Below, piece after piece: positions 3,119 through 63,842 of a DNA stretch of 64,000 nt. Both the position numbers and the translations under genes were made by a program. Below the pieces are notes generated by a model. It had not been told where the DNA came from. It did no database searches and worked only from the letters and a program-made list of their open reading frames with translations. The stretch lies in NCBI GenBank assembly GCA_028698215.1, contig JAQVDY010000007.1, positions 6,579-70,578 of the forward strand, in the 5' to 3' direction. Within the stretch, counting starts at the first letter, position 1, and each line of letters begins with the position of its first letter. This DNA is from Actinomycetota bacterium (GTDB lineage: Bacteria > Actinomycetota > Humimicrobiia > Humimicrobiales > Humimicrobiaceae).

Positions 3119-3216
3119 AGTTTTATTTAGCCATTCTATTATTAGCCCCCCATAAAATCAACCTTCAATTATATTAGACATGGCACTACCTGCAGGGGGC
3201 AAAACTCTTATTTTTA

Positions 3217-3245
3217 TTATTGCATAATTGCAAGTTATTGCATAA
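3217..3245. promoter_or_regulatory. Candidate operator: direct repeat TTATTGCATAA x2 (18-bp period) containing the palindrome TTGCATAATTGCAA, upstream of the aldolase gene
   Basis: Read directly in the 165-bp divergent intergenic region between the PBP1A and aldolase genes. Confidence 0.3.
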
Positions 3246-3284
3246 AATAAATTATAAATACCAATTAATAAGAGGTGAGCAGTA

Positions 3285-4139
3285 ATGGTTTACATAAATA
3301 CTAAGGATATGCTGATTAAAGCCAGGAAAGAAAAATTTGTGGTGGGGGCTTTCAATATTGTCAACCACACCTCTATGGTGTCAGTAGCAGAAGCAGCCAT
3401 TGAAGAAAGGTCACCGGTAATTATTCAGACTTCCCAAAAAACAGTGGAAGCCTTGGGCTATAAGATGCTGGTGGATATGGCCAAAGACCTGGCCCAGGGA
3501 ACAGACGTTCCCATTTCCATGAACCTGGATCATGGGACCGATATGGATATTATTGAAAACTGTATTGAGCATGGCTGGAGCTCAATTATGGTAGACGGAT
3601 CCAGCCTGCCCTACCAGGAGAATATAGAAATGACTAAAAAGGTAGTGGAAATGGCCCACCAGAAAGGTATTACCGTGGAAGGTGAGCTGGGCCATATAGG
3701 GGGAACCGAGGAACAGGTTTCAGTAGACCAGGAGCATGTAATGTTAACTGATCCCCAAATGGCGGTAGATTTTCAGCAGAAGACCGGCATTGACAGCTTG
3801 GCCGTAGCCATTGGCACTGCCCACGGCCTGTACTCAGGAGAGCCCAGGCTGGATTATCAGCGCCTGGCCAAAATAATGGAGGTTACTGATTTTCCCATAG
3901 TAATTCACGGCTGCTCCGGTTTAAGCCAAGAAGTGCTGGCTAAAATCAGGACTTTCGGAGTATCTAAAATGAACATCTCCACCGAAATCAAGCATAAATA
4001 CATCGACTCCTGCGATTTATACATAAAAGAGCATCCCCATGAGTATGAGCCGGTGAAAAAAATAAACTTTGTAAAGGAAGAAGTAAAAAAACTGGTTAAG
4101 AAATATATTGGTATTTTTGGAAGCGCCGGTAAGGCCTAA
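3285..4139 (+). CDS. Class II ketose-bisphosphate aldolase (Fba/GatY/KbaY family)
   Basis: 284 aa; FVVGAFNI, NLDHG, GELGHIGG and IVIHGxSG motifs of class II FBP/tagatose-BP aldolases; AGGTGAG RBS. Confidence 0.85.
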   Translation: MVYINTKDMLIKARKEKFVVGAFNIVNHTSMVSVAEAAIEERSPVIIQTSQKTVEALGYKMLVDMAKDLAQGTDVPISMNLDHGTDMDIIENCIEHGWSSIMVDGSSLPYQENIEMTKKVVEMAHQKGITVEGELGHIGGTEEQVSVDQEHVMLTDPQMAVDFQQKTGIDSLAVAIGTAHGLYSGEPRLDYQRLAKIMEVTDFPIVIHGCSGLSQEVLAKIRTFGVSKMNISTEIKHKYIDSCDLYIKEHPHEYEPVKKINFVKEEVKKLVKKYIGIFGSAGKA

Positions 4140-4154
4140 CAGGGAGGGATAAAA

Positions 4155-5105
4155 ATTAACAGCTATAAACCAACTTATGAATGTGACCTTCACTGCCATA
4201 CCAACCGGTCAGATGGCAATGATACCCCCAGGCAGCTAATTGTCCTGGCAGCCGGCCTGGGCATGAGAGCCATAGGCATGGTGGATCATGATACCGGGCC
4301 TGTCCTTACCGTAGAAGAAGGGGGCAGCAAATTGGGTATTAAGGAGTTTGCTGCCAGCCGGGGCCTGGAGCTGGTGCTGGGTGATGAATTTTCCTGTGAC
4401 AGCCAGGTGGATGACGTTCACATTATCGGCTATGAGCTGGACTGGGATAGCCCAGCTTTCCTTAAGGAGGTAGAGCGTGCCAAGCAGAGCAAGGCTGATG
4501 CCTACCGGCAGCTATGTGAGGTGCTGACCGAAGAAGGCATGCCCTTAGACTACGGCCAGGACATATTAATATATACAGACCTGCAAGGGATTCAAAGGCA
4601 TAGAACGCCAGAGGAAGTGCAAAGAAAACATATATTTGAAGCTATGGCCAGAAAAGGCTATGCCGCTTCCTGGAGTGAAGCCAAACTTATGGTCAGGGAT
4701 AACCCCCGGCTGAATGTGCCCCGGAAAAAGGTCAGCCCCCTGGAGGCTATAAATATTATTAAAGGCGGCGGCGGCCTGGCGGTATTGGCCCACCCCTACC
4801 TTATAGACGAGCAGGTAGATTCTGAAATACTGGGCAGAGTAACCCGGCTAGAATACATTGATAAACTGATAGAAGCCGGCCTGGACGGCATGGAATCCTG
4901 CTATACTTATGACAAAACTACCTATAAGGGCACGCTCAGCCGCCAGCAGGTTCAGCAGGAGGTAGAAAGCAGGTATAAGGGTAAGGTAAGGTTTTTTACC
5001 GGAGGTTCAGATTACCACAATGATGCTAAAAAAGGGGCGGCTAACCCCAGGCTGATAGGAGAAGCAGGCATCAGCTACCGGCAGTTTAAATCTATTTTTG
5101 CCTAA
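4155..5105 (+). CDS. PHP-domain (polymerase/histidinol-phosphatase-like) phosphoesterase; apparent non-canonical ATT start
   Basis: In-frame DLHCHTNRSDG PHP motif lies upstream of the first ATG (4263). The frame is open from 4140 with no ATG/GTG/TTG. AGGGAGGG RBS at 4141-4148 is followed by ATT at 4155. Later motifs HII, LAHP, GGSDYH. Confidence 0.55.
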   Translation: MNSYKPTYECDLHCHTNRSDGNDTPRQLIVLAAGLGMRAIGMVDHDTGPVLTVEEGGSKLGIKEFAASRGLELVLGDEFSCDSQVDDVHIIGYELDWDSPAFLKEVERAKQSKADAYRQLCEVLTEEGMPLDYGQDILIYTDLQGIQRHRTPEEVQRKHIFEAMARKGYAASWSEAKLMVRDNPRLNVPRKKVSPLEAINIIKGGGGLAVLAHPYLIDEQVDSEILGRVTRLEYIDKLIEAGLDGMESCYTYDKTTYKGTLSRQQVQQEVESRYKGKVRFFTGGSDYHNDAKKGAANPRLIGEAGISYRQFKSIFA

Positions 5106-50708: not shown

Positions 50709-51152
50709 ATGCCAGACTCCCAGATAGAAAAGATAAGGAAGTATTTTGAAAAAGAGCCTTATGCCGGTTACTTGGGAATGAAGCTGGAAGAACTGGCTTT
50801 AGGACGCAGTGTAGTCAGCATGAAGGCCTTACCCCAGTTTAACAATGCTTTTTCCATTACCCACGGCGGGGCAATTTTCTCTCTGGTCGATACGGCTTTT
50901 GGCCTGGCGGCAAATTCTTACGGGCAATTGGCAGTAGCCCTTTCCATGTCCATAAACTATATCTCTCCTGCCCGGCCGGGAGACAGGCTGACCGCAGAGG
51001 CGCAGGAGGTAAGCAGAGGGACACGAACCGCTAATTACAGGATAACAGTAACCAATAAACCCGGCCAAACCGTAGCTATTTGCCAGGCGATAGCCTATTT
51101 AAAAAGAAAAAAATTACCACTGCCCTTAAAAAAAAATGAAGATAATACATAG
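50709..51152 (+). CDS. PaaI-family hotdog-fold thioesterase
   Basis: 147 aa; HGGAIFSLVDTAFGLA hotdog signature. Confidence 0.7.
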   Translation: MPDSQIEKIRKYFEKEPYAGYLGMKLEELALGRSVVSMKALPQFNNAFSITHGGAIFSLVDTAFGLAANSYGQLAVALSMSINYISPARPGDRLTAEAQEVSRGTRTANYRITVTNKPGQTVAICQAIAYLKRKKLPLPLKKNEDNT

Positions 51153-52197
51153 CTCAGATCTACATTTAAACCAGAAATTTCCAGAGAGGATGGAAGCTTT
51201 AGACCGGATATTGGAATTAGGGCACCACCAGCAAGCGGATATAATTTGCATAGCCGGTGACCTTTTTGACAGCAGGGCAGATTGCGATTTTTATCGGCCC
51301 ATGCTGCGCCAGAAATTTTCACAGCTTCCATTTAAAGTCCTGGTTATTCCCGGAAATCATGATTATGGTTCTTATGGAGGCGATAATTTTTTTGGCAATG
51401 ATATTACCATTATTGATAAAAAGCCTTTTGAAGTAATAAACCTAAATCAAGCCAGGCTGATAGCAGTACCCTATTATAACCAGGATTTAAGCCAGCATAT
51501 TTACCAGATAATCGAAAACAAAGACCCTGAAGGAATAAATATTTTGATGCTGCACTGTTCCCTGGATGCACCTTTTATAGAGAAAGATGATCTGGGGGAG
51601 GAGCAAGGGGAAAAATACCTGCCGGTAAGCTCCAAAGTTCTGGCAGAGTTAGGTTTTGACTATATTCTTGCCGGCCATTACCACAGCCGTTTCACGGTTC
51701 AGAAAATCTCTGAGGCCAGTACTTTTATTTATCCCGGCAGCCCGGTATCGGTTACCAAAAAAGAGCTGGGAAAAAGAGCAGTGGCAGTGCTGGATACCAA
51801 AGAGGATCCGCCGGTTAGCCAGGCTTATGTAGACAGCAAATATTTTGATGTCTTGAATTTTTCCTTTTTGCCCCAAAAAGAGGATGAAGTCCTGTCACAG
51901 CTGCAGCAGGCCTTGGACCAGAATGATTCCCGCTACGGCTGGATAGCGGTGTGCCTGGATGGATTTACATCCCGGGGAGAAAAAACACTTAAAGCGGAAA
52001 TTGAAAATATTGCTGACAGGTATGATAGGGATAAAATAGAGTTGAATTTGACCTACAGGGATGTAGCGGCAGTATTGGCAGATCCCCTTTATGCTGATTT
52101 TAAAGGGAAGCTGGAGAAGTCAGAGTTAAGCGAAGAATTGAAAAAGGATATTGACCAGCAGTGCAAGCTCTATTTTTCTAAACTGAGGATGGATTAA
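51136..52197 (+). CDS. SbcD/Mre11-family metallophosphoesterase (YhaO-like)
   Basis: 353 aa; DLHL, GDLFD, GNHD phosphoesterase motifs; overlaps the upstream gene by 17 nt. Confidence 0.75.
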   Translation: MKIIHSSDLHLNQKFPERMEALDRILELGHHQQADIICIAGDLFDSRADCDFYRPMLRQKFSQLPFKVLVIPGNHDYGSYGGDNFFGNDITIIDKKPFEVINLNQARLIAVPYYNQDLSQHIYQIIENKDPEGINILMLHCSLDAPFIEKDDLGEEQGEKYLPVSSKVLAELGFDYILAGHYHSRFTVQKISEASTFIYPGSPVSVTKKELGKRAVAVLDTKEDPPVSQAYVDSKYFDVLNFSFLPQKEDEVLSQLQQALDQNDSRYGWIAVCLDGFTSRGEKTLKAEIENIADRYDRDKIELNLTYRDVAAVLADPLYADFKGKLEKSELSEELKKDIDQQCKLYFSKLRMD

Positions 52198-52199
52198 TT

Positions 52200-54503
52200 T
52201 TGTTTTTAAAAAAAATAGCATTAAATCATTATGGACCTATATCCAGCCAGCAGCTGGATATAGGTAAGGGCATACAAATTATCTGGGGTCCTAATGAGGC
52301 CGGCAAAACCCTTACCATAGATGCTGTATTAAAATTAATGCTGGGTAAATCAGCCCGTGATTTTAATGATATTGACCGGGTTAATCAGCTGCCTGACGGT
52401 TACCTGCTCCTGGAAGAGGACCAGGGGCAGCAGTTAAAAATAGATTCTGCCAACAGTTTGAGCAAATTTATAGGTATAAGTCCCCGGGATGTCCGGAATA
52501 TCATGGTGATTAGGAACAGTGATCTCAGCCTGGATCTGGAAGCGGACTATTATCGTACCGTTACTGACCGGTTAACCGGCCTGCAGACAGAAAGAATTGA
52601 AAAGCTGGCGGGGATGTTCAGGCAGTATGGCCGGTTGACCGAACAGGGCAGCCTATCTAACAGCCGGGAACACGGCTATATTAAGAATAAAAGGGAAGAG
52701 GCCAAACAATTAAAAAAAGAAATCGACAGCTATCTCTCTGAAGCACAAAAAAACCACCTGGATGAACTGGAAGTTACTAGTTTGAGGTTATCCAAAAAGT
52801 TGGGAGAGACCAAACAGCAGCTGGCAGAATATGACCGGTTAGCGGCATTTAATGATTTTAAACAGTTGGAAGATAATATAGCCCAGCTTAAAATATTAAC
52901 AGGTCAATTCCAGCAGTACCAAAAATATACCCAGGAAAGTTATAACCATCTTTTAAAATTAAAGTCAGATATAAGTACTGATGACGACAATATCAAAGTC
53001 GCTGCTGCTGAAAGCAGTAACCTGGATAAAACCATAGACGGCCTGGCTGTAAAAAAGGGGGAAGTAGAAAGCAAGCTCAAACCCTTAGATGATAAAGCCA
53101 AAAACCTGGTTGAGCTAAAAGAAGAGCTTGCCTTTTGGCAGCATCAAAACATGGAGGCTGAGAACAAGGTATTTCTGTGGGTGTCCCTGGCTTTGCTGGC
53201 TATGGGTTTCATAAGCCTGGTTCCCCTCATAATGTATCAGGTTTTAGCCTATTTATGGCTTCCCTTGATACTGGTTTTTCTGTTCCTGGCTTTTTTTGGC
53301 TTCTACTGGTATCAAAAGCAAAAATATAGATCCTATCTTTTAGGCCTGTCCAAGCTGCTGGATAAATTTAGCAGATGGGGCATTAAAGCCCAGAGCCTAA
53401 GGGAAGCAGCAGTAGAAGTCAGCCGTTTTGAAGAGCAGAAGCAAATTTTGGAAGAAGAGAAACTGGGTCTGGAAAAGGAATTAGACATAAAAAGGGGACA
53501 TAGGCAGAGCCTGGCGGCAGATACCAAGAGGCATAGCCAAAACCTATCCGATAGCCGGGAACAGGTGTCAGATATCTTAAATCAGCTGGGGGTAGAAAGT
53601 GAACAGGCACTAGCTAAAAAGTTGGAAGAAAAAAGAGACATTCAGTACAGGGCAGGGCAAGTATTTCAATGGCTGAACCAAAAATTTGAGCTAAGCTATG
53701 AGAATGAAAATGATATGGATTATATTGGAAAAAAATTAATTGAGATAGACAGCCTGGCCCAGGAGAAAAAACCCCAAGGATACTCATCAAACCAGGTTTT
53801 GCGCCGTATTGACCAAAAATACTATCAACAGCTAAAGCAAGAGTTAACAGAGCTGGAAGTAGAGCTGGGGGAAAATAATAAAAAGCTGGAAGACCACCAG
53901 TTCGCTTTAAGGGATATGCAGAAAAAATTAGATAATCTGGAAATAGAATGTTCTAATATAGAGATAGATAACTTGGCTAAGCTGCCCAAAGCAGCGGTTT
54001 TGCTGGAGGATTTTGCAGCAGAGATTGACCGAAGGGCAGAGGCAGCAGAAGAGGCCATTGCCATATTGGGCCAGATCAGCCAGGAAGAGCAGCTTAAGGT
54101 ATCAGATATATTTGAAACCCTTTCTGCTTCAGATTATTTTCACCAGGTAACAGGGGGTAGATACAGCCGCATATATTATGAGCCCGAGCAAAAAAAAGTA
54201 AAAGTGGTTAACCGTAAAGGAGAAAGCCTGGAGGCAACCCAGTTAAGCCGGGGTACTTATGACCAGTTATACCTGGCTATAAGGGTGGCTTTGGCACAAA
54301 AGGTTTTTACTGAACCTTCCTTTTTCATATTAGACGATGCTTTTATCTATTCTGACACCGACAGGCTCAAACAGCAGTTTGAGCTACTGGCCAGCTTGGC
54401 CCAAGAAGGATGGTCTTTTATTTATTTTACAGTGAAGGATGAAATAAAGCAGATGGCAGGAAGTATTTCTTCCCACCATATAATTTCTATGGAAGGTAAC
54501 TGA
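52200..54503 (+). CDS. SbcC/Rad50-like ATPase with central transmembrane segment (YhaN-like)
   Basis: 767 aa; N-terminal Walker A (GPNEAGKT), long coiled coils, hydrophobic segment at about residues 320-370, C-terminal signature/Walker B region (FFILDDAF). Confidence 0.7.
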   Translation: MFLKKIALNHYGPISSQQLDIGKGIQIIWGPNEAGKTLTIDAVLKLMLGKSARDFNDIDRVNQLPDGYLLLEEDQGQQLKIDSANSLSKFIGISPRDVRNIMVIRNSDLSLDLEADYYRTVTDRLTGLQTERIEKLAGMFRQYGRLTEQGSLSNSREHGYIKNKREEAKQLKKEIDSYLSEAQKNHLDELEVTSLRLSKKLGETKQQLAEYDRLAAFNDFKQLEDNIAQLKILTGQFQQYQKYTQESYNHLLKLKSDISTDDDNIKVAAAESSNLDKTIDGLAVKKGEVESKLKPLDDKAKNLVELKEELAFWQHQNMEAENKVFLWVSLALLAMGFISLVPLIMYQVLAYLWLPLILVFLFLAFFGFYWYQKQKYRSYLLGLSKLLDKFSRWGIKAQSLREAAVEVSRFEEQKQILEEEKLGLEKELDIKRGHRQSLAADTKRHSQNLSDSREQVSDILNQLGVESEQALAKKLEEKRDIQYRAGQVFQWLNQKFELSYENENDMDYIGKKLIEIDSLAQEKKPQGYSSNQVLRRIDQKYYQQLKQELTELEVELGENNKKLEDHQFALRDMQKKLDNLEIECSNIEIDNLAKLPKAAVLLEDFAAEIDRRAEAAEEAIAILGQISQEEQLKVSDIFETLSASDYFHQVTGGRYSRIYYEPEQKKVKVVNRKGESLEATQLSRGTYDQLYLAIRVALAQKVFTEPSFFILDDAFIYSDTDRLKQQFELLASLAQEGWSFIYFTVKDEIKQMAGSISSHHIISMEGN

Positions 54504-55699: not shown

Positions 55700-56356
55700 T
55701 CAGGCATTCTCCTGCCCGTACCTGCACCAGGCCAGTATGCTGCATTGTCTGCATTTTGGGTTTCTACCCAGGCAAATTGTTCTCCCAAAGGCAATGATTT
55801 TATGTGAAAAATCGGTCCATCCGTCTTCAGGTATTATATTCCTTAAATCAAATTCTATTTTATCAGGATTGGTATTAGTAGTAAGTCCCAGCCGGGTGGC
55901 AATCCTTTTCATGTGGGTATCTACAATAATGGCCTGCTGCCCATAAGCATTAGCCAGTACCACATTGGCTGTTTTCCTGCCTACTCCGGACAGGGAAGTA
56001 AGCTGGTCAATATTGGAAGGCACCTGGCCTCCAAATCTATCCACCAGGTCTTGGGCACAATTTTTGATATTTTTAGCCTTGTTCCTAAAAAAGCCGGTAG
56101 ATTTAACTGCCTGCTCCAGCTGGTACAGGTCTGCCTGGGCCAGGATCCGGGGGGTTGGATAGGTTTTGAACAGCTGGGGAGTGATTTTATTGACCTGCTT
56201 ATCGGTGCTTTGGGCGGCCAGTATGGTAGCAATCAATAGCTGGAACGGATTTTTAAAATGTAGGGAGGTGTCATCTGCTTGGGGATAATGCTTTTTTAAG
56301 TTAGCAATTATTTTGTCAATATTTTCTACTGCTGGAGGATAGAGTCCTGGTTTCAT
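55700..56356 (-). CDS. nth: Endonuclease III (Nth; DNA glycosylase/AP lyase with 4Fe-4S cluster)
   Basis: 218 aa; HhH-GPD motif (LTSLSGVGRKTANVV), catalytic Lys/Asp, CxxxxxxCxxCxxxxxC cluster. Confidence 0.85.
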   Translation of the reverse strand: MKPGLYPPAVENIDKIIANLKKHYPQADDTSLHFKNPFQLLIATILAAQSTDKQVNKITPQLFKTYPTPRILAQADLYQLEQAVKSTGFFRNKAKNIKNCAQDLVDRFGGQVPSNIDQLTSLSGVGRKTANVVLANAYGQQAIIVDTHMKRIATRLGLTTNTNPDKIEFDLRNIIPEDGWTDFSHKIIAFGRTICLGRNPKCRQCSILAWCRYGQENA

Positions 56357-58077
56357 TTCTTTTTGCCTTTCTTTTTATTTAGGTATTGCTCCATTTGTTT
56401 TTTGTCCATGGTATTAGCCACGTCTTGAGCTCTCAGCCATCCCTTACGGGCTATGTTTATGCCGTATCTATAATCCTTTAGGTTTTCCAGGTGATGGGCA
56501 TCAGGATTTATGAATATCATTACCTTTTTATCCCGGGCATATTTTAACATTCTCCAGTCCAGGTCCAGCCTGTAGGGGCTAGCGTTGATTTCTATGTCTA
56601 CCCCATTCTCTGCTGCAGCATTGATTACCCTTATAATATCTACCTGGTACGGTTCACGGGCCAGAAGTATCCTTCCGGTAGGGTGGGCAATCATAGTGGT
56701 ATACCTGTTTTCAATAGCTTTTATAATCCTGTTGGTCATTGATTCCTGGGACAGGTTAAAACTGGAATGAATAGCGGCAATTACAAAATCAAACCTGGCC
56801 AGAGCCTGATTGCTGTAATCAAGGCTTCCATCGGGTAGGATATCGGCTTCTATGCCCTTAAAAACAGTAAAGCCGTTAAGTGTTTGGTTTACCTCTGCCA
56901 TATGGGAAAGGTATTCCGATAGGTCTTTTTCCCTTACACCATGGGCATAGGCGGCAGTCTGGCTGTGGTCACTTATTCCTGCATACTGCATTCCCATACT
57001 TTGCAGGAATTTACAGGCCTGCAGCACATCGATGTTTCCATCACTGAAATTAGTATGGATATGGAAGATGCCTTTTATATCGGTTTCCTCTACCAGCTGT
57101 GGCAAATTCCTGTTTCTGGCAGCCTCAATCTCCCCCATATTTTCCCTTAGTTCAGGAGGGATATAATCCATGGAAAAGACATCGAACAATTCCTCCTCGT
57201 TTGCACAAGGTATAAGTTTATCCTGGTTAAAAAGCCCATACTCATTCATCTTTATTCCCATTTTTTTTGACATGGATCTCATAGCGGTGTTATGCTCCTT
57301 GCTTCCGGTGAAATGGTGGAGGGCATAAGGATACTGAAAATCCTCCACCACCCTAAGGTCTACATTTATTCCTGATTGGAGGGTTATACTGGATTTGGTG
57401 TCTCCCTTGGCTATCACTTGCTGTACTGGAAAAAGAGATACAAAGTAATCCATAACCGGACCGGGCTGGCCAGTACTGGCCAAAAGATCTATATCCTTTA
57501 CTGTTTCCTTTTTTCTTCTAAGGCTCCCGGCTATGCTGGCCCTTGCTATAAGGGGATACTTATTTAGCCGGTCCAGCAGCTGCAGACCTTCTTCTATCAC
57601 CTCTGCATAAAGGAAGCTGCTGCTGTATTTTTTTACCATGGATATTCCTCTCAAGATATTTTCCTGGGTTTTAAGGCCAAAACCGGGAAGCTGGGCAATG
57701 GTATTATGATTGCAGGCAAGTTCCAGTTCAGGAATGCTTTCTATGCCCAGGTGTTGGTACAGGTACCTTATTTTCTTGGGACCCAGGGTTGGTATTTTAA
57801 GCATTTCTAAAAGTCCTGGCGGTATTTGCTGTTGGAGCTGCTGATGTAGCTCAAAATTGTCGCCGGAAGCCATTTCTATTATTTGCTGGGCTATTTTGGC
57901 CCCGATGCCTTTTATTTGTGTTATTTCTTGGGCAGTAGCTTTTGAAAGGTCTATAGAAGACGTTTCCAATGACCTGGCTGCATTTTGGTAAGCCCTGATC
58001 TTAAAGGGATTTTCGTCTTTTAGTTCCAGTAGTACTGCTGTTTCCGCCAGCAGATTGCTGATTTGTTGTTTATCCAT
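56353..58077 (-). CDS. DNA polymerase X family protein with C-terminal PHP domain (PolX paralog 1)
   Basis: 574 aa; HhH N-terminus, IAGSLRRKKETVKDIDLL catalytic motif, PHP domain (HIHTNFSDG). Confidence 0.85.
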   Translation of the reverse strand: MDKQQISNLLAETAVLLELKDENPFKIRAYQNAARSLETSSIDLSKATAQEITQIKGIGAKIAQQIIEMASGDNFELHQQLQQQIPPGLLEMLKIPTLGPKKIRYLYQHLGIESIPELELACNHNTIAQLPGFGLKTQENILRGISMVKKYSSSFLYAEVIEEGLQLLDRLNKYPLIARASIAGSLRRKKETVKDIDLLASTGQPGPVMDYFVSLFPVQQVIAKGDTKSSITLQSGINVDLRVVEDFQYPYALHHFTGSKEHNTAMRSMSKKMGIKMNEYGLFNQDKLIPCANEEELFDVFSMDYIPPELRENMGEIEAARNRNLPQLVEETDIKGIFHIHTNFSDGNIDVLQACKFLQSMGMQYAGISDHSQTAAYAHGVREKDLSEYLSHMAEVNQTLNGFTVFKGIEADILPDGSLDYSNQALARFDFVIAAIHSSFNLSQESMTNRIIKAIENRYTTMIAHPTGRILLAREPYQVDIIRVINAAAENGVDIEINASPYRLDLDWRMLKYARDKKVMIFINPDAHHLENLKDYRYGINIARKGWLRAQDVANTMDKKQMEQYLNKKKGKKK

Positions 58078-59158
58078 AGAAAGTGGCCAATCTTTTTATT
58101 GCTTCTGTTTTTTGGCTAATGCCTATCTTGCTTTCTTTTACCGCCCGGTGAAGCAGGTCTATGGACCGGTTATAATTTTCCCGGTCCACAGGATAAGGGA
58201 TACCGTCCTTGCCCCCATGGGCAAAACTGAACCTGGCCGGGTCTTGTATGCTGTATCTTGCTCCATAAATCAATTCTGATATCAAAGCTAAAGCCCTTAC
58301 TGTTTTAGGGCCTACTCCCTGTACTGACAGCAGTGCTTCAAAATCAGGGGGCTTGTGCTCATAAGTATAAGTAAAAATCTTGGAAAGCCGGTGGTAATCC
58401 ATATCAGTAATTTTAATCTGATGCCTCGCCGGCAGGCTGTATTTTTTTTCCTGGTAATTTTGCAGCAGTTTAAGGTCTTTTAGGATTTCAGCCGGTTTTT
58501 GTAATGATAGCTGAGCTATTACCTCTTTGGTTTTTTGGCTGGTTGGATCCACAAGATTTAAGGTAGGTGCCCTTTGGTCACAGCAGATGGCAGAATGGGG
58601 CTCTGTGGTAAAATCAGTGACTTTATCTGAAAGCCAGTGATAACGGCGGGCCATGCGGTTAGTTTGATTTAACCCCTGTTGTACCACGGACCATTGCCTG
58701 CCGTCTGAAGTAAAAAAGAAACAATGGTGGTATAGCTGGTATCCGTCCTGGAGGGCAGAGCTGTCTACTTTGGCCACAATCTTGCTGTTATATACTAAAC
58801 AGGAAAGATCCAGGCCCAATAAATTCCCGGCAGTTTCTATCTCTGTTGGTGTTTTTCTGGATGTAGCGCCCTTGCCTCCTGCAATAAAAAGGCCCAGGTC
58901 TTTTTCCAGGCCTTTAATACCTTCTTTTAAAGCGCCGCATACAGTAGTGGTTACGCCACTGGAATGCCAGTCAAAGCCCAATACGCAGCCTAAAGCCTGG
59001 AACCATAAAGGATCAGAAAGCCTTTTTAGCACCTCTCCGCTACCATATTCTGAAACCATAAGGCAAACAATTTCCCTGGCCAGTTTTTTCATCCGGCTGA
59101 ATAGCCAATAAGGAGCTTTGCCCCCATGCAGGGGCAGTTTCATGGAACCTGTCTTCAT
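58070..59158 (-). CDS. DUF763-like protein of unknown function
   Basis: 362 aa; N-terminal LPLHGGKAPYWL recalled as DUF763-like; a C-terminal HhH-like GVGPKTVRAL; overlaps the downstream PolX gene by 8 nt. Confidence 0.4.
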   Translation of the reverse strand: MKTGSMKLPLHGGKAPYWLFSRMKKLAREIVCLMVSEYGSGEVLKRLSDPLWFQALGCVLGFDWHSSGVTTTVCGALKEGIKGLEKDLGLFIAGGKGATSRKTPTEIETAGNLLGLDLSCLVYNSKIVAKVDSSALQDGYQLYHHCFFFTSDGRQWSVVQQGLNQTNRMARRYHWLSDKVTDFTTEPHSAICCDQRAPTLNLVDPTSQKTKEVIAQLSLQKPAEILKDLKLLQNYQEKKYSLPARHQIKITDMDYHRLSKIFTYTYEHKPPDFEALLSVQGVGPKTVRALALISELIYGARYSIQDPARFSFAHGGKDGIPYPVDRENYNRSIDLLHRAVKESKIGISQKTEAIKRLATFYG

Positions 59159-59266
59159 AAAATACCTCCAGCTATTTATGCTACTATTTTAGCATTGATT
59201 AATCCAGAGAATAAATATCTCTTGCAATAATGATACTAAAAATGTATCATTAGATTGAGGTTTAAC

Positions 59267-59671
59267 ATGAAATTATTGACTAAAGATACTGATTATGCGG
59301 TAAGGGCTTTATTGCACATGGCTAAGCAGGGAAACGGGGCTTACCAGGTCCGGAAGCTGGCTGATGATTTGGGTATACCTATGCCTTTTTTAAGGAAAAT
59401 ACTGCAGCAGCTGGCATCAGCAGGCGTGCTCGATTCTGTGAGGGGCAAGGGCGGCGGTTTTAGTTTGGCCCGGAGGCCAGAGGATATATTCCTGCTGGAT
59501 ATTATGGAAATATTTCAGGGAAAATTTGAGATTATGGAATGTATATTCAACCGTAATATATGTCCCAACCTAAAACAATGCACTTTAAGGAAGAAGCTTA
59601 TATCCATTAAGGATTATGTGCAGGAGCAGCTGGAAAGCATTACTTTAAAAGAGTTACTGGAGGAAAAATAA
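59267..59671 (+). CDS. Rrf2-family transcriptional regulator
   Basis: Start ATG 59267 after GAGG (MKLLTKDTDYAVRALLHMA); wHTH; no obvious three-Cys cluster. Confidence 0.8.
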   Translation: MKLLTKDTDYAVRALLHMAKQGNGAYQVRKLADDLGIPMPFLRKILQQLASAGVLDSVRGKGGGFSLARRPEDIFLLDIMEIFQGKFEIMECIFNRNICPNLKQCTLRKKLISIKDYVQEQLESITLKELLEEK

Positions 59672-60444
59672 TGGCTAAAAGGGAAATAATTAAGATAGAT
59701 GAGCAAAAATGTGATGGATGCGGGGCATGTGTTCCCAACTGTCCGGAAGGAGCTATACAGGTAATAGATAAAAAAGCCAGGCTGGTAAGTGATCTTTATT
59801 GCGACGGCCTGGGGGCCTGCATAGGGGATTGCCCCCAAGGAGCTATTACTACTGAAATAAGGGAAGCAGAACCTTATGATGAGAAAAAGGTTATAAAAAA
59901 TATAGTAAGACAGGGAGAACATGTAGTTTCTGCCCATCTTAAGCATTTAAAAAACCACGGCCAAACCCAATTCTTGAACCAGGCCTTGGATTACCTGGCC
60001 AGCCAGGGCATAGAGGTTGAAGATGTAAGGGCAACTGAAGATAATCCCCGGCAGGAAGCGGAACCAAAGACCTACAGCGATAATTTTGAATTAAAAAACT
60101 GGCCGGTTCAGATAAACCTGGTGCACCCTTCTGTATCTTTTCTCCAGGATTCAGAATTGGTTATATCGGCAGACTGTGTACCTTTTGCCTACCCCGGTTT
60201 CCATAAGTTTATAGAAGGAAAAGTGGTGTTGGTTGGCTGTCCCAAGTTTGATGATGTCCAGGCGTACATGGAAAAGCTACAACAGATATTTATCCAAAAC
60301 CGTATAAAATCGGTTACCGTAGTGTATATGGAAGTGCCATGCTGCCGCGGCATGGTCAGGCTGGTGCAGGAATCCATCAAGGCTTCCGGTAAAGTTATCC
60401 CTTTTGCCCACCTAAAGATAGGGGTTAAGGGAGAGATAAAGTAA
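59671..60444 (+). CDS. 4Fe-4S dicluster ferredoxin-domain protein with Cys-containing C-terminal domain
   Basis: 257 aa; CDGCGACVPNCP and CDGLGACIGDCP, then a C-terminal domain with GCPKFDD and PCCRG. Confidence 0.5.
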   Translation: MAKREIIKIDEQKCDGCGACVPNCPEGAIQVIDKKARLVSDLYCDGLGACIGDCPQGAITTEIREAEPYDEKKVIKNIVRQGEHVVSAHLKHLKNHGQTQFLNQALDYLASQGIEVEDVRATEDNPRQEAEPKTYSDNFELKNWPVQINLVHPSVSFLQDSELVISADCVPFAYPGFHKFIEGKVVLVGCPKFDDVQAYMEKLQQIFIQNRIKSVTVVYMEVPCCRGMVRLVQESIKASGKVIPFAHLKIGVKGEIK

Positions 60445-60445
60445 G

Positions 60446-61042
60446 TTAAACCTCATCCCTTAAAGGGACAAAAGCTACCGGGCTTACTGCCTTTTGGTGG
60501 ATCTTACCTCCCTTTTTGGTGATCACGTAAAGACTTTGGCCAAAAGGGGATCCTGCGGGAATAACCATTATTCCATCATCTTTAAGTTGGGAGACCAAAG
60601 GTGGCGGTATGTTTTTGGGGGCTGCGGTAACTATGATACGGTCATAGGGGGCATGCTGTTTCCAACCGTAATAACCATTGCCGTTAAGCAGCCATATATT
60701 TTTATACCCGGCCAGCAGATGCTTAGCCTGGTAATAGAATTGCGGGATGGATTCTACCGAATAAACCTGGCCGGCAAGCTCTGCTAAAACAGCGGTCTGG
60801 TATCCTGATCCAGTACCTATCTCCAAGACTTTTTCTTTGCCTTTCAACTGTAGAAGCTGGGTCATCAGTGCTACTATATAAGGTTGGGAAATGGTTTGGC
60901 CGTTTCCTATAGGAAGGGGCTCATCGACATAGGCCTGTTCTCTATGCTCAGGGCCGACAAAGTTCTCCCTGGGTATTTTACCCATAGCCTCAATAACCCG
61001 CTTATCCCTGATATCCCTGGAAATTAGCTGTTTTTCTACCAT
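60446..61042 (-). CDS. pcm: Protein-L-isoaspartate O-methyltransferase
   Basis: Start moved to the internal ATG (MVEKQLISRDIRDKRVIEAM...); the track ORF has a 70-codon N-terminal extension through AT-rich sequence. VLEIGTGSGYQTAVLA SAM motif. Confidence 0.85.
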   Translation of the reverse strand: MVEKQLISRDIRDKRVIEAMGKIPRENFVGPEHREQAYVDEPLPIGNGQTISQPYIVALMTQLLQLKGKEKVLEIGTGSGYQTAVLAELAGQVYSVESIPQFYYQAKHLLAGYKNIWLLNGNGYYGWKQHAPYDRIIVTAAPKNIPPPLVSQLKDDGIMVIPAGSPFGQSLYVITKKGGKIHQKAVSPVAFVPLRDEV

Positions 61043-61142
61043 TAAATTTCTTTGTTTTAGATAGTTAAACATAATGAAAAAATTATAAATTTTAGGTATA
61101 ATATCAACTCTTATACTATCATAACCGGAGATTAAATAGGAG

Positions 61143-62888
61143 ATGCTAAATCTAGAGCTTTCCCATATTTTAACTAATATAGCGGAAATGAATAAGGTGG
61201 GTATCCACCAAAAAGAGAAAGTTTTCCCCTTAATGAGGGCCTCCAGGACCATAAGGGATTACGCTGGTGATATCGGTGAGGCTTACCGGAATAAAAAGCT
61301 AAAGGATCTTCCGGGAATAACCCCTGAAGTTTTTGCCTATATAGACCAATATGTAAAAACAGGAAAAGTAGAAGAGTATCAGAAACTGAAGCAGAAATAT
61401 TCAGAAGATTTAGTCAAGCTTATCAGGATATGCGGGTTGGGGTTTGGCAGGATGATAAAAGTATACCAAATTCTAAAAACAGATAGCTTGGCAAGCCTGC
61501 AGGAAAAGATGTCTGATCCCAGGCAAATAGAAAAGCTGACCGGAGCAAAAAAAGATTCAGTCCTGGATGGAGTGATGGTAGAAAGAATCAAAAGCAGTAT
61601 AGATTTTTATCATAGTATGAAAGGTAAAATGCCCCGTGGTTATGTGGAACACTTCCTGAAAGGTTTAATGGAACAGATTAAAGCCCTGGGCCATGTATCC
61701 CGTTTGGAAATAGTGGGGTCTACCCGCAGAAAGAAGCCGCTAATAGGTGATATTGATATATTAGTAGATGCTGATTTTAACCAGGACGGATTCAAGTTGG
61801 ACCCCAGTATAAAGTTTTTAAGCCAAGTCTTAAAAATTTCCCATATAAGGTCTAAAAAAAGCCAGAATATAGGGCAGGCCAACGCCAGCTTTGTCTACAG
61901 GTCTGATTTAGGTATTGATATAGAGGTCATTATTACCGGATCCCATAGGTATTATGCTGACCTGTTTACCACTACTGGAAGCAAAACACATGTAAATTCT
62001 ATTCTAGATATATTAGAGGACAATGATATTGATATATTTAACTACAACCTGGCCAGCGAAGAACATATTTACCAGCTGGCGGGGCTTCAGTTTGTACCCT
62101 GTGAGCTTAGGGAAGGCCTAAAAGAAATTGAATGGGCGCAACAGTATAAAATCCCCAGGCTGGTGGCCTTACCAGATATTAAAGGGGACCTGCATGTGCA
62201 TTCGCCTTTCAGTGATGGGCTAATAAGTGAGAAGGACCTGTTGGATACCATCAAGAAATATAATTATCAATATCTGGCTTTAACCGATCATTCGCCTTCT
62301 AATATTTTCGGTAATGGTTTAGACCAAAAGCGTTTGGCAGAAAAGTTAAAATGGTTCCAAAATTTAAAGCTGGATATAGGGGATAGCAGGATACTGTTTG
62401 GTGCAGAAGTGGATATAAAAGAGCAAGGCAGGCTTGATTACCAGGACCAGGTACTGAAAAGTTTGGAAGTAGTGGTGGCATCAATGCATTCCAGCTTTAG
62501 GCAGGGTCCCGCCCAAAATACCCAAAAGGCAACCGCAGCTTTAGCTCATCCCAGCGTAGATTTTTTGGGGCATCCTACCGGCATTGTTTTTGGAAGCAGG
62601 GCCCCTTATTCGCTGGATATGGAGCAAATTATCCAGCAGGCCGGAAAATTTAACAAAGCACTGGAAATAAACTCCTATTTTCTAAGACTGGATTTAAATG
62701 AACATTATGCCCGTAAGGCCAAGGAGGCAGGGGTGCTGCTGGTTATAAATACGGACTCCCACCGGCCTAATAACCTGGATCATATGAGGCTGGGAGTGGA
62801 TATTGCCAGGAGGGCAGGACTCAGTAAGCAGGATGTATTAAATACCAGGGATTACGAAGGCTTTAAGCAGTGGAAAAAAGAAAGGTAA
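61143..62888 (+). CDS. DNA polymerase X family protein with PHP domain (PolX paralog 2, divergent N-terminus)
   Basis: 581 aa; IVGSTRRKKPLIGDIDILV catalytic motif, PHP domain (DLHVHSPFSDG). Confidence 0.8.
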   Translation: MLNLELSHILTNIAEMNKVGIHQKEKVFPLMRASRTIRDYAGDIGEAYRNKKLKDLPGITPEVFAYIDQYVKTGKVEEYQKLKQKYSEDLVKLIRICGLGFGRMIKVYQILKTDSLASLQEKMSDPRQIEKLTGAKKDSVLDGVMVERIKSSIDFYHSMKGKMPRGYVEHFLKGLMEQIKALGHVSRLEIVGSTRRKKPLIGDIDILVDADFNQDGFKLDPSIKFLSQVLKISHIRSKKSQNIGQANASFVYRSDLGIDIEVIITGSHRYYADLFTTTGSKTHVNSILDILEDNDIDIFNYNLASEEHIYQLAGLQFVPCELREGLKEIEWAQQYKIPRLVALPDIKGDLHVHSPFSDGLISEKDLLDTIKKYNYQYLALTDHSPSNIFGNGLDQKRLAEKLKWFQNLKLDIGDSRILFGAEVDIKEQGRLDYQDQVLKSLEVVVASMHSSFRQGPAQNTQKATAALAHPSVDFLGHPTGIVFGSRAPYSLDMEQIIQQAGKFNKALEINSYFLRLDLNEHYARKAKEAGVLLVINTDSHRPNNLDHMRLGVDIARRAGLSKQDVLNTRDYEGFKQWKKER

Positions 62889-63842
62889 TTACTTTTTGCT
62901 GCACCCAAATACTTCTTTTTGGTTGAAGTCAGGCAAGAAGGGGTCGTTATCGGTGTTAAGGCCAGTATAATCCTGAATGTAGCCATGTTTAAAGCCCAGT
63001 TTCTGGGCATAATCCACTACGCTGTTGTATTCAGAGGCAGTAATTCCACGGGACAGCTGGGAGAAGTTTCTTGCCTTATATACCGGATGGTACTGGGACA
63101 TAATGCTTAGAGGTATATGGGGAGACAACTCATTTTTTATAAAATTAATGGTTTCTGTTAGGCCTCCAATATTATTAGGTAATACCAGCAGCCTTATTAT
63201 CAGTCCTTTTACCGCGATTCCCTGGCTGTCCACTTTTAGTTCTTTTACTTGGTCATACATCTCTTTTACCGACTGGCGGTTATACTGGACATATTTTTTT
63301 ACTCCTGAATACCTGTAGGCATAGTCATCATGGCTGTAGCGCATATCGGGCATATATATGTCCACCAGCCCCTTGAGCATATTTATAATTTCAGGCTTAT
63401 CATAGCCCCCTGTATTGTAAACGATAGGTATGTTCAATCCTTTATTTCTGGCCAGTGACAATGCTTCTACTATTTGCGGCACCCATATGGTGGGTGAAAC
63501 CAAATTTATATTGTGGCAACCCTGATGCTGTAATTTAATCATAGCCTCTGCCAGTTTGGGTATGGGAACTTCCTTACCCTGATGCTGCTGGCTTATCTGA
63601 TAGTTCTGGCAATAAATACAGCCCATATTGCAATAAGAGAAGAAAATAGTGCCTGAGCCATTGTTGCCGGATATGGGGGGTTCTTCCCCAAAATGGGCCA
63701 TGGCTGCTGATATTACCGGTACATGGGGTGCTTGGCAGTAGCCAGTTTTTTTAGAAGTTCTGTCTATCCTGCATTCATGGGGGCATAGCCGGCAATGTCT
63801 AAGCATTTTATTTAGATTTAATTCTGTTTTATTCCTGTCCAT
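62889..63842 (-). CDS. Radical SAM protein (PflX/YjjW / AmmeMemoRadiSam-type activase-like)
   Basis: 317 aa; N-terminal CRLCPHEC....GYC plus radical SAM CNMGCIYC (Cx3Cx2C). Confidence 0.6.
   Translation of the reverse strand: MDRNKTELNLNKMLRHCRLCPHECRIDRTSKKTGYCQAPHVPVISAAMAHFGEEPPISGNNGSGTIFFSYCNMGCIYCQNYQISQQHQGKEVPIPKLAEAMIKLQHQGCHNINLVSPTIWVPQIVEALSLARNKGLNIPIVYNTGGYDKPEIINMLKGLVDIYMPDMRYSHDDYAYRYSGVKKYVQYNRQSVKEMYDQVKELKVDSQGIAVKGLIIRLLVLPNNIGGLTETINFIKNELSPHIPLSIMSQYHPVYKARNFSQLSRGITASEYNSVVDYAQKLGFKHGYIQDYTGLNTDNDPFLPDFNQKEVFGCSKK

Follow-up and report, generated by a model that had tools for sequence, protein, structure and literature searches.

A DUF763 gene translationally coupled to a family X DNA polymerase gene in an Actinomycetota operon: a possible link of an orphan protein family to DNA repair

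Introduction

Short-patch repair by bacterial family X DNA polymerases (PolX) that carry a PHP domain has been studied in Bacillus subtilis and Thermus thermophilus. Jointly, PolX and endonuclease III (Nth) account for lesion removal, the cleaning of 3' ends and the filling of gaps. To our knowledge, no translationally coupled partner of the kind reported below has been described for the characterised PolX enzymes.

Here we present the analysis of a 64,000-nt stretch of DNA from an Actinomycetota bacterium (the window), in which a gene of the DUF763 family overlaps a PolX gene, which in turn overlaps the gene for Nth. DUF763 is a large and old family without a solved or structurally similar protein, and its gene context is uninformative in most genomes. 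A literature search under the identifiers of the family and of member loci returned no function; the sole mention was in a domain census from 2005 (PMC554113). The original prediction, made from the letters of the window, had proposed the DUF763 protein as a new component of base excision repair (BER).

Organization of the operon

The operon consists of three open reading frames on the minus strand. Its first gene, identified from the ORF and by Pfam, encodes the DUF763 protein (58070-59158; 362 aa); it is followed by the genes for PolX with a C-terminal PHP domain (56353-58077; 574 aa) and for Nth, an HhH-GPD protein with a 4Fe-4S cluster loop (55700-56356; 218 aa). As read from the sequence, the DUF763 stop and the PolX start overlap by 8 nt (58070-58077, minus strand), the PolX ATG lying 8 nt within the 3' end of the DUF763 gene at ATGGATAA, and the PolX stop and the Nth start overlap by 4 nt (ATGA; 56353-56356, minus strand). 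Frames and overlaps are those originally predicted. A GGAGG Shine-Dalgarno sequence (59165-59169, minus strand) is located 6 nt before the DUF763 ATG, and inspection of the sequence showed that the PolX ATG has no purine-rich site like it within a distance of about 15 nt. A terminator scan found no minus-strand terminator-like site between the genes of the operon. (Note that the number of sites returned by the promoter and terminator scans was not above that in shuffled sequence.) The arrangement goes beyond chance because related loci share the identical ATGGATAA junction, and the proposed DUF763-PolX-Nth operon is confirmed as a real three-gene unit. The three genes would share one transcript, with the translation of PolX coupled to termination on DUF763.

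The identities proposed for the second and third genes hold at the profile level. PolX matches the NCBIfam equivalog NF006375 with 557.8 bits (cut-off 426) and the Pfam families HHH_8, HHH_5, thumb and PHP; its translation shows the DxD motif plus the third Asp and the His/Asp motifs of an intact PHP domain. Nth scores 254.5 bits against TIGR01083 (cut-off 211.7) and matches PF00730 with E = 1.8e-26, and its translation contains the cluster motif C-x6-C-x2-C-x5-C, GVGRKT with the lysine of the helix-hairpin-helix (HhH) and IVDTH with the aspartate.

Upstream of the operon, a divergent intergenic region (59159-59254) is followed by genes assigned by Pfam to an Rrf2-family regulator (59255-59671, plus strand) and a 4Fe-4S protein (59671-60444, plus strand). 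An inverted-repeat search located a perfect palindrome in this region, TAATGATAC-N7-GTATCATTA (59228-59252), which may have a regulatory role; its arms and a block containing TAAAAT are conserved in a related locus (L175). The Rrf2/4Fe-4S gene pair is a clade-variable insert, present in L175, absent from L003 and replaced by a glycosyltransferase gene in L176. Further upstream, Pfam and NCBIfam assign genes for PCMT (60446-61252, minus strand), a second PolX-like paralogue, PolX2 (61143-62888, plus strand; 326.3 bits against NF006375, under the cut-off of 426), and a radical-SAM protein (62889-63842, minus strand). This trio adjoins DUF763 in L001/L071, L003, L005, L084, L175 and L176.

The DUF763 family

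Assignment of the first gene to DUF763, as originally predicted, extends over the full length of the family profile: the protein matches PF05559 with 446.2 bits (E = 8.5e-134; cut-off 35.5) at profile positions 2-319 of 319. A protein of 100% identity is on record from an Actinomycetota MAG. The window protein has every one of the invariant PF05559 motifs (LPLHxGxxP, DWHSSGxTT, GGKG, QQG, ARRYHW, the GxG hairpin, DP and GGKDGxP), as alignments A2 and A3 show. Invariant Gly, Ser, Lys, Arg, Asp and His motifs persist in members that are 34-57% identical to it, and the invariant small and polar residues are H11, D63, S66, S67, K96, D132, Q160/Q161, R171/R172, D306, K317 and D318.

The family comprises at least 2,867 clusters at 50% identity and is found across the Archaea, many anaerobic bacterial phyla and rhizobial megaplasmids, and it is kept in the reduced genomes of DPANN and CPR. 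The median pI of the family is basic (9.1). No relatives were found among 2.9 million viral contigs, and neither DUF763 nor PolX2 matched the defence families of PADLOC; on these two null results, a defence-system or viral origin of DUF763 was rejected. Domain fusions were not found, the 10 longer or N-terminally extended members carrying DUF763 alone. The family is ancient and cellular and has only one architecture.

Predicted structure and conserved loops

The AF2 model of the window DUF763 protein was computed from an MSA of 125 sequences and has a pLDDT of 87.4; a run with a shallow MSA (pLDDT 68.6) was discarded. The structural comparison suggested with the original prediction yielded this model and no match to it, as Foldseek found none in the PDB (best E = 0.46, TM about 0.1) or among predicted viral structures (BFVD). 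PDB sequence searches with the single sequence and with the A2 profile found no solved relative, the best match being the HhH of RuvA (E = 0.87). Neither an activity nor a cofactor nor a fold relative of DUF763 was returned by the search.

Three glycine-rich polar loops are invariant: LPLHxGxxP (aa 8-16), GFDWHSSGxTT (aa 61-71) and D306-P...AHGGKDGxPYPV (aa 306-324). GGKG (aa 94-97) and ARRYHW (aa 170-175) are further conserved motifs. Model confidence is lowest in the N-terminal motif (aa 1-14) and in the HGGKDG loop and dips in the DWHSSG loop too, which would fit loops that are ordered by a substrate.

The C-terminal HhH that had been noticed at GVGPKTVRAL is real. The segment of aa 273-296 (...LLSVQGVGPKTVRALALISEL; 58271-58342, minus strand) is modelled by AF2 as a helix (273-277), a hairpin and a second helix (284-296), and its match to PF00633 (E = 7.8e-4, 19.6 bits) lies under the gathering cut-off of 24. 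Among 66 diverse members of the family, HHH was matched in 20 and HHH_5 in 10. Residues G283, R288 and L290 are conserved at 90% or more in the family alignment, as is D306, 21 residues past K285; the latter, the HhH lysine, is not conserved family-wide. HhH motifs are sometimes found in RNA-binding proteins as well. DUF763 is probably a DNA-binding protein.

Gene context in other genomes

Regarding the clade of the window, seven Actinomycetota loci with DUF763 proteins 59-76% identical to that of the window keep the junction: ATGGATAA is identical in five of them (L003, L083, L085, L086, L088), and gene coordinates give the same 8-nt DUF763/PolX overlap in the other two (L175, L176). The interval between PCMT and DUF763 varies among these relatives, containing nothing, the Rrf2 and Fe-S protein genes or a glycosyltransferase gene, while the junction is constant. 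Nth is located 60-110 nt downstream of PolX in L003, L083, L085 and L088 and follows PolX with almost no gap in L175 and L176; the L086 contig ends inside PolX, with the Nth region beyond it. In a sister subclade of the Actinomycetota, DUF763 adjoins PCMT and PolX2 and not PolX1-Nth.

Four loci of a Gemmatimonadota clade have the reverse order, PolX followed by DUF763, with an ATGA overlap in two (L063, L173) and a 20-nt gap in two (L171, L172). No Nth was found near these loci, and their flanking genes are unrelated. The DUF763-PolX pairing arose independently in two bacterial phyla, the Actinomycetota and the Gemmatimonadota. Linkage had been predicted with both repair genes, of which one stands: because Nth is missing in the Gemmatimonadota and is separated or off-contig in five of the seven Actinomycetota relatives, the association is of DUF763 with PolX and not with Nth. 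At three loci of the Dehalococcoidia, a PD-(D/E)XK (Cas4-like) nuclease gene is located directly downstream of DUF763, which is a third lineage-specific link of DUF763 to a DNA enzyme.

Of the 160 loci sampled for this distance, 8 had PolX within 1 kb of DUF763, and of the 129 that lie outside the window's clade, only 1 did. In total, linkage was seen in the window, the seven Actinomycetota loci and the four Gemmatimonadota loci and was absent from the other approximately 150 sampled loci; it is not a property of the DUF763 family overall. A Pfam census of 139 immediate neighbours (238 families) and of 90 operon-like partners (162 families) found none that was recurrent, and neither tblastn of all window neighbours against the 160 loci nor all-vs-all clustering of 1,210 neighbour ORFs revealed a recurrent family-wide partner. 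An operon partner common to the whole family was rejected, since the recurrent families were only generic ones (ABC, sigma-54, methyltransferase) and the clade-specific PCMT. None of the genes around DUF763 on plasmids of Rhizobium, Sinorhizobium and Legionella, or in Bathyarchaeia, Micrarchaeota, Woesearchaeota and a further archaeal contig, is related to DNA repair. By a rough estimate, a few cross-lineage recurrences would be expected by chance among that many neighbour families.

The original prediction had been staked on a linkage kept in other genomes and on a family assignment that survives an HMM search. Both were found, the linkage being borne out within the Actinomycetota clade and by the independent Gemmatimonadota pairing and failing as a general expectation outside the window's clade.

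Proposed role of DUF763

The best explanation as a whole is that the three genes form one transcription unit in which PolX translation is coupled, and that DUF763 is a putative DNA-bound enzyme or factor of novel fold that works with PolX; we consider it about equally balanced between being right and being wrong. The single HhH would anchor the DNA backbone beside a pocket built from the three invariant glycine-rich polar loops, to which GGKG and ARRYHW may contribute. The likely reason for the two independent pairings with PolX is that DUF763 would create or prepare a nicked or gapped intermediate, which PolX would trim with its PHP domain and fill; in an alternative form of this step, DUF763 may hand the intermediate to PolX as a stoichiometric partner. 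In the clade of the window, Nth would add an upstream step of lesion removal, and in most organisms DUF763 would act as a stand-alone gene. DNA binding, catalysis, the position in the pathway and physical contact with PolX are what we infer from motifs, model and gene context. The more specific proposal, that DUF763 is an unrecognised DNA-repair enzyme of new fold which makes or processes a nick or gap for filling by a polymerase, is tentative and on balance doubtful.

PolX, a low-copy gene, has come to adjoin DUF763 directly on two occasions, in opposite orders and with a stop/start overlap both times; the junction has stayed the same through rearrangements of the upstream flank, a third lineage ties DUF763 to a nuclease, and the protein is basic with a conserved HhH hairpin. 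All of this argues against a linkage by historical accident, in which DUF763 would act in an unrelated process (e.g., RNA metabolism or housekeeping) and the operon would reflect convenient co-expression or drift in two small clades. Such an accident, which we regard as somewhat unlikely, would nevertheless agree with the approximately 95% of sampled loci that have no DNA-repair neighbour, with the mostly monocistronic position of DUF763 or its place among unrelated genes in Archaea, Proteobacteria and many other phyla, with the sub-threshold HhH match in the window and with the few chance recurrences roughly estimated for hundreds of neighbour families.

Translational coupling frequently accompanies stoichiometric complexes. 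Its occurrence here, together with the HhH, the basic pI and the lack of a recognisable catalytic fold, would suit DUF763 as a non-catalytic DNA-binding accessory or scaffold that directs PolX, or a different polymerase where there is no PolX, to nicks or gaps or stabilises it there; this is unlikely, however, as the invariant small and polar residues in glycine-rich loops are what one would expect of an active site or a ligand-binding site and not of a scaffold, and DUF763 is common in organisms and loci that lack PolX. That DUF763 is a divergent HhH-GPD-type DNA glycosylase or lyase, as its layout GVGPKT...YG......D306-P with the highly conserved (at least 90%) aspartate about 21 residues past the HhH might suggest by its resemblance to GVGRKT...YG......D in Nth, is very improbable, since PF00730 matched 0 of 66 members even at E <= 1, hhalign against the window Nth aligned the hairpin only (probability 3.8%), Foldseek against the PDB gave no glycosylase, the HhH lysine varies across the family, the N-terminal alpha/beta half has no HhH-GPD counterpart and DUF763 does not show the two-domain all-alpha fold of the solved Nth, MutY, OGG or AlkA structures.

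Returning to DUF763 as a putative DNA-bound partner of PolX, the two independent coupled pairings are the only functional clue in a survey of more than 170 loci, and they give this orphan family a first testable, unproven link to DNA repair. Nothing in the analyses points to a particular activity among those originally suggested (end-processing, ligase recruitment or damage recognition). The role in BER is plausible for a partner of PolX and falls short of a demonstrated one; it is one plausible reading only, because the linkage is not family-wide, is with PolX and not Nth and indicates no particular activity. If the link is true, DUF763 is a new component of PolX-dependent repair, with a possible role for a protein that most Archaea carry, and the repair-enzyme reading could hint at a so far unassigned step in the DNA repair of Archaea; if it is false, the operon is a lineage-specific arrangement of ordinary genes.

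Comparison with known systems

Among the proteins of PF05559, that of the window is unexceptional and structurally in no way different; what is unusual is its PolX-coupled context. Generic HhH modules that contact the DNA backbone (RuvA domain II, the 8-kDa and fingers domains of Pol beta/PolX, ComEA) have the hairpin consensus h-x-x-h-x-G-h-G-x-x-x-h in common with DUF763, and the likeness is limited to about 30 residues; unlike these modules, DUF763 has no (HhH)2 unit for duplex binding, its single HhH being part of a larger conserved domain. The HhH-GPD glycosylases (Nth, MutY, OGG1, AlkA) likewise have one hairpin followed by a conserved Asp at a spacing similar to that in DUF763, and their logic of an HhH that anchors DNA beside a pocket could match that of DUF763, whereas profile and fold matches, the conserved HhH lysine and a related N-terminal half are lacking, and DUF763 is placed outside this superfamily. 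With PolX-centred short-patch repair in bacteria, the window shares intact polymerase and PHP motifs and a canonical Nth; in contrast to the characterised PolX systems, it has an extra, uncharacterised gene that is translationally coupled 5' of PolX.

Operon organization

The three minus-strand ORFs lie exactly where the original prediction had placed them, namely the DUF763 gene (58070-59158, 362 aa), the polymerase gene here called PolX1 (56353-58077, 574 aa) and Nth, encoding endonuclease III (55700-56356, 218 aa), and the two overlaps it had claimed, of 8 nt and 4 nt, were read directly in the window DNA. The DUF763/PolX1 junction is ATGGATAA, with the PolX start located 8 nt within the 3' end of DUF763, and the PolX1/Nth junction is ATGA. 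A GGAGG Shine-Dalgarno sequence is present 6 nt 5' of the DUF763 ATG. No comparable Shine-Dalgarno was seen for PolX1 in the window DNA, which fits a putative coupling of PolX1 to DUF763 by termination-reinitiation. A scan of the region yielded no minus-strand terminator-like sites between the operon genes; matches to promoters and terminators there were no more numerous than in shuffled controls.

The family assignments were borne out by unambiguous HMM matches: DUF763 matches PF05559 over its full length (446 bits vs a cut-off of 35.5), PolX1 matches the NCBIfam PolX equivalog (557.8 vs 426) and contains HHH_8, thumb and PHP domains, and Nth matches TIGR01083 (254.5 vs 211.7) and carries the 4Fe-4S Cys motif. 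A protein from an uncultured Actinomycetota MAG (P0001) is 100% identical to the window DUF763 protein.

DUF763 family features

An exhaustive HMMER search placed 2,867 clusters at 50% identity in the DUF763 family (E<=1e-3), of which 473 reached E<=1e-30; word-indexed searches gave at least 8,000 clusters. Carriers include many bacterial phyla, CPR bacteria and Archaea (Thermoplasmata, Bathyarchaeia, Altiarchaeales and DPANN lineages). A 2005 census recorded DUF763 in 14 archaeal species, rhizobia and Xanthomonas (PMC554113), and nothing beyond it was found in the literature under the family identifiers. The family was not found in 2.9 million viral contigs, has no match in PADLOC or among NCBIfam models, and no extra domains were found in its longer members.

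Alignment with members just 34-57% identical to the window protein revealed a retained set of motifs: LPLHxGxxP (aa 8-16), GFDWHSSGxTT (aa 61-71), GGKG (aa 94-97), AKVD (aa 129-132), QQG (aa 160-162), ARRYHW (aa 170-175), a G-x-G hairpin with R288 and L290, D306-P, and AHGGKDGxPYPV (aa 313-324). A structure model from a shallow MSA was poor (pLDDT 68.6), and the model used was built from a 125-sequence MSA of bacterial and archaeal members (pLDDT 87.4, pTM 0.84). Its N-terminal half is alpha/beta, with four helices leading to a strand that ends in GGKG, then two further helices and a three-stranded meander bearing YHH, QQG and RRYHW; its C-terminal half is helical, with a helix (273-277), a hairpin, a second helix (284-296) and then a long loop. 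Confidence is lowest at aa 1-14, which hold the N-terminal motif, and in the HGGKDG loop (aa 310-323), and falls to a pLDDT of about 76 in the DWHSSG loop (aa 59-68); judging from the model, these loops may become ordered upon substrate or cofactor binding. No match came back from Foldseek searches of the PDB (solved structures) or of BFVD (predicted viral structures). The C-terminal helix-hairpin-helix (HhH)-like segment noted in the original prediction is recovered in the model and by matches to HHH (20/66) and HHH_5 (10/66) among diverse members, the sole secondary Pfam signal. The family is basic (median pI 9.1).

Conservation of gene order

In the window clade the order DUF763, PolX1, Nth was found at six sampled loci (L003, L083, L085, L088, L175 and L176; DUF763 identity 59-76%), and at L086 the contig ends within PolX. 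The 8-nt stop/start overlap is present in all seven; ATGGATAA was read in L003, L083, L085, L086 and L088, and the overlap in L175 and L176 follows from gene coordinates. The DUF763-PolX junction is constant throughout, and the interval separating PCMT from DUF763 is a hot spot for insertions: nothing is inserted in L003 (6140-6199), where PCMT directly adjoins, an inverted Rrf2 and 4Fe-4S module occupies it in the window (59255-60444) and likewise in L175, and a glycosyltransferase in L176 (3960-5888). At L004 three genes are inserted between DUF763 and PolX1-Nth, and codon 279 of the DUF763 copy (3744-4832; 71% identity), just ahead of the HhH, is an in-frame stop, owing to pseudogenisation or to an error in assembly. 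In the sister subclade (L001/L071, L005, L084, L006) PCMT adjoins DUF763, PolX2 (a second PolX-like gene) and a radical-SAM gene are present except in L006, and PolX1-Nth is absent after DUF763 in the loci with downstream sequence (L001/L071, L005, L006).

Gemmatimonadota loci show the reversed order, PolX followed by DUF763, without Nth. The pair at L063 is a clean two-gene unit flanked by unrelated opposite-strand genes, and at L173 (81% identical) the two genes overlap at ATGA. In L171 and L172 (90% identical) a full-length, frameshifted PolX (approximately 2240-3981) lies 20 nt 5' of DUF763, covered end to end by tblastn and split across 2-4 reading frames, a sign of indels from long-read assembly or of recent pseudogenisation. 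The pairing is missing from relatives at 71-72% identity. The Gemmatimonadota pairing is an independent recurrence; its PolX is just 34% identical to PolX1. In three Dehalococcoidia loci a PD-(D/E)XK nuclease (PF12705, weakly Cas4-like, about 445 aa) lies directly 3' of DUF763 on the same strand (L008 8397-9722; L022 3470-4822; L028 7567-8904), a third lineage with a DUF763-adjacent DNA enzyme, which we count toward the reality of the PolX link.

Family-wide linkage was assessed in 160 loci, 80 of them retrieved from GTDB species representatives with a diverse profile and 80 from closer relatives in metagenomes, all searched with each protein of the window neighbourhood. PolX occurs within 1 kb of DUF763 in 8/160 loci, and in 1/129 with DUF763 less than 59% identical to that of the window. 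No recurrent partner emerged when 1,210 neighbour ORFs were clustered without supervision, in Pfam censuses of 139 immediate neighbours (238 families) and 90 operon-like partners (162 families), or in the annotated contexts on plasmids of rhizobia and Legionella and on archaeal contigs; DUF763 is therefore normally stand-alone, and a base-excision-repair context is not a family property. The DUF763-PolX linkage is conserved in the window clade, recurs in Gemmatimonadota and does not extend to the family at large.

The sample spans hundreds of neighbour families, so by rough estimate a few recurrences would arise by chance, and two pairing events fall short of statistical proof. The link still looks real, since PolX was named beforehand, is low-copy and shares a stop/start overlap with DUF763 in both events. 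Accidental linkage, with an unrelated function for DUF763, is rated as rather unlikely.

Neighbouring genes and sites

PolX2 (61143-62888, plus strand, 581 aa) shares about 27% identity with PolX1 (tblastn, related loci) and, at 326 bits, falls short of the PolX equivalog cut-off (426), with a weak palm match and an intact PHP domain. It is conserved beside PCMT and the radical-SAM gene in L001, L003, L005, L084, L175 and L176, so that two PolX genes lie within 6 kb in the window clade. The PCMT ORF (60446-61252, minus strand, 268 aa) overlaps the divergent PolX2 start by 110 nt and extends some 40-55 aa further at the N-terminus than related proteins, which measure 212-230 aa; translation probably begins in fact at an internal Met.

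Within the 96-nt intergenic region from which the Rrf2 gene and the DUF763 operon diverge, a perfect palindrome, TAATGATAC-N7-GTATCATTA (59228-59252), is located just 5' of Rrf2; its arms and a TAAAAT-containing block are kept in L175. The palindrome is a candidate operator for Rrf2 and as such would hint that the repair operon is under redox or Fe-S control.

An SbcD/Mre11-like phosphoesterase (353 aa) followed by a Rad50/SbcC-like ATPase (767 aa) is encoded at 51136-54503 (plus strand). The ATPase lacks a CxxC zinc hook, has two strongly hydrophobic, TM-like helices mid-protein (aa ~323-372) and resembles an SMC-like repair ATPase anchored in the membrane. In L176 the pair lies past NikR and a methyltransferase; L004 and L175 have the SbcC-like gene as well.

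Proposed function

It is about an even call that DUF763 is a DNA-bound enzyme of new fold that makes or prepares a nick or gap passed to PolX in two lineages. Its single HhH would grip the DNA backbone beside a pocket of invariant glycine-rich and polar loops; the co-translated PolX would receive the nick or gap intermediate for 3'-end trimming and filling, and in the window clade Nth would contribute the upstream lesion-removal step. DNA binding, catalysis, pathway order and any complex with PolX are our reading of the locus. That DUF763 is instead a non-catalytic accessory factor of PolX appears improbable. That DUF763 is a divergent HhH-GPD glycosylase, as its HhH and D306 might suggest, is most improbable, and homology to these enzymes is rejected: there is no PF00730 match in 66 members, hhalign against the window Nth aligned the hairpin alone at 3.8% probability, and the HhH lysine varies across the family.

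The pairing is a solid starting point, open to test, for assigning a function to a large and ancient family, but its phylogenetic base is narrow and it offers no hint of the chemistry. The window DUF763 is an ordinary member of this catalogued, functionally orphan family, and PolX1 and Nth are canonical. The locus is rated as a repair module that centres on PolX and whose partner gene is uncharacterised; its novelty lies in the translationally coupled pairing of DUF763 with PolX, and in the fact that this pairing recurs independently.
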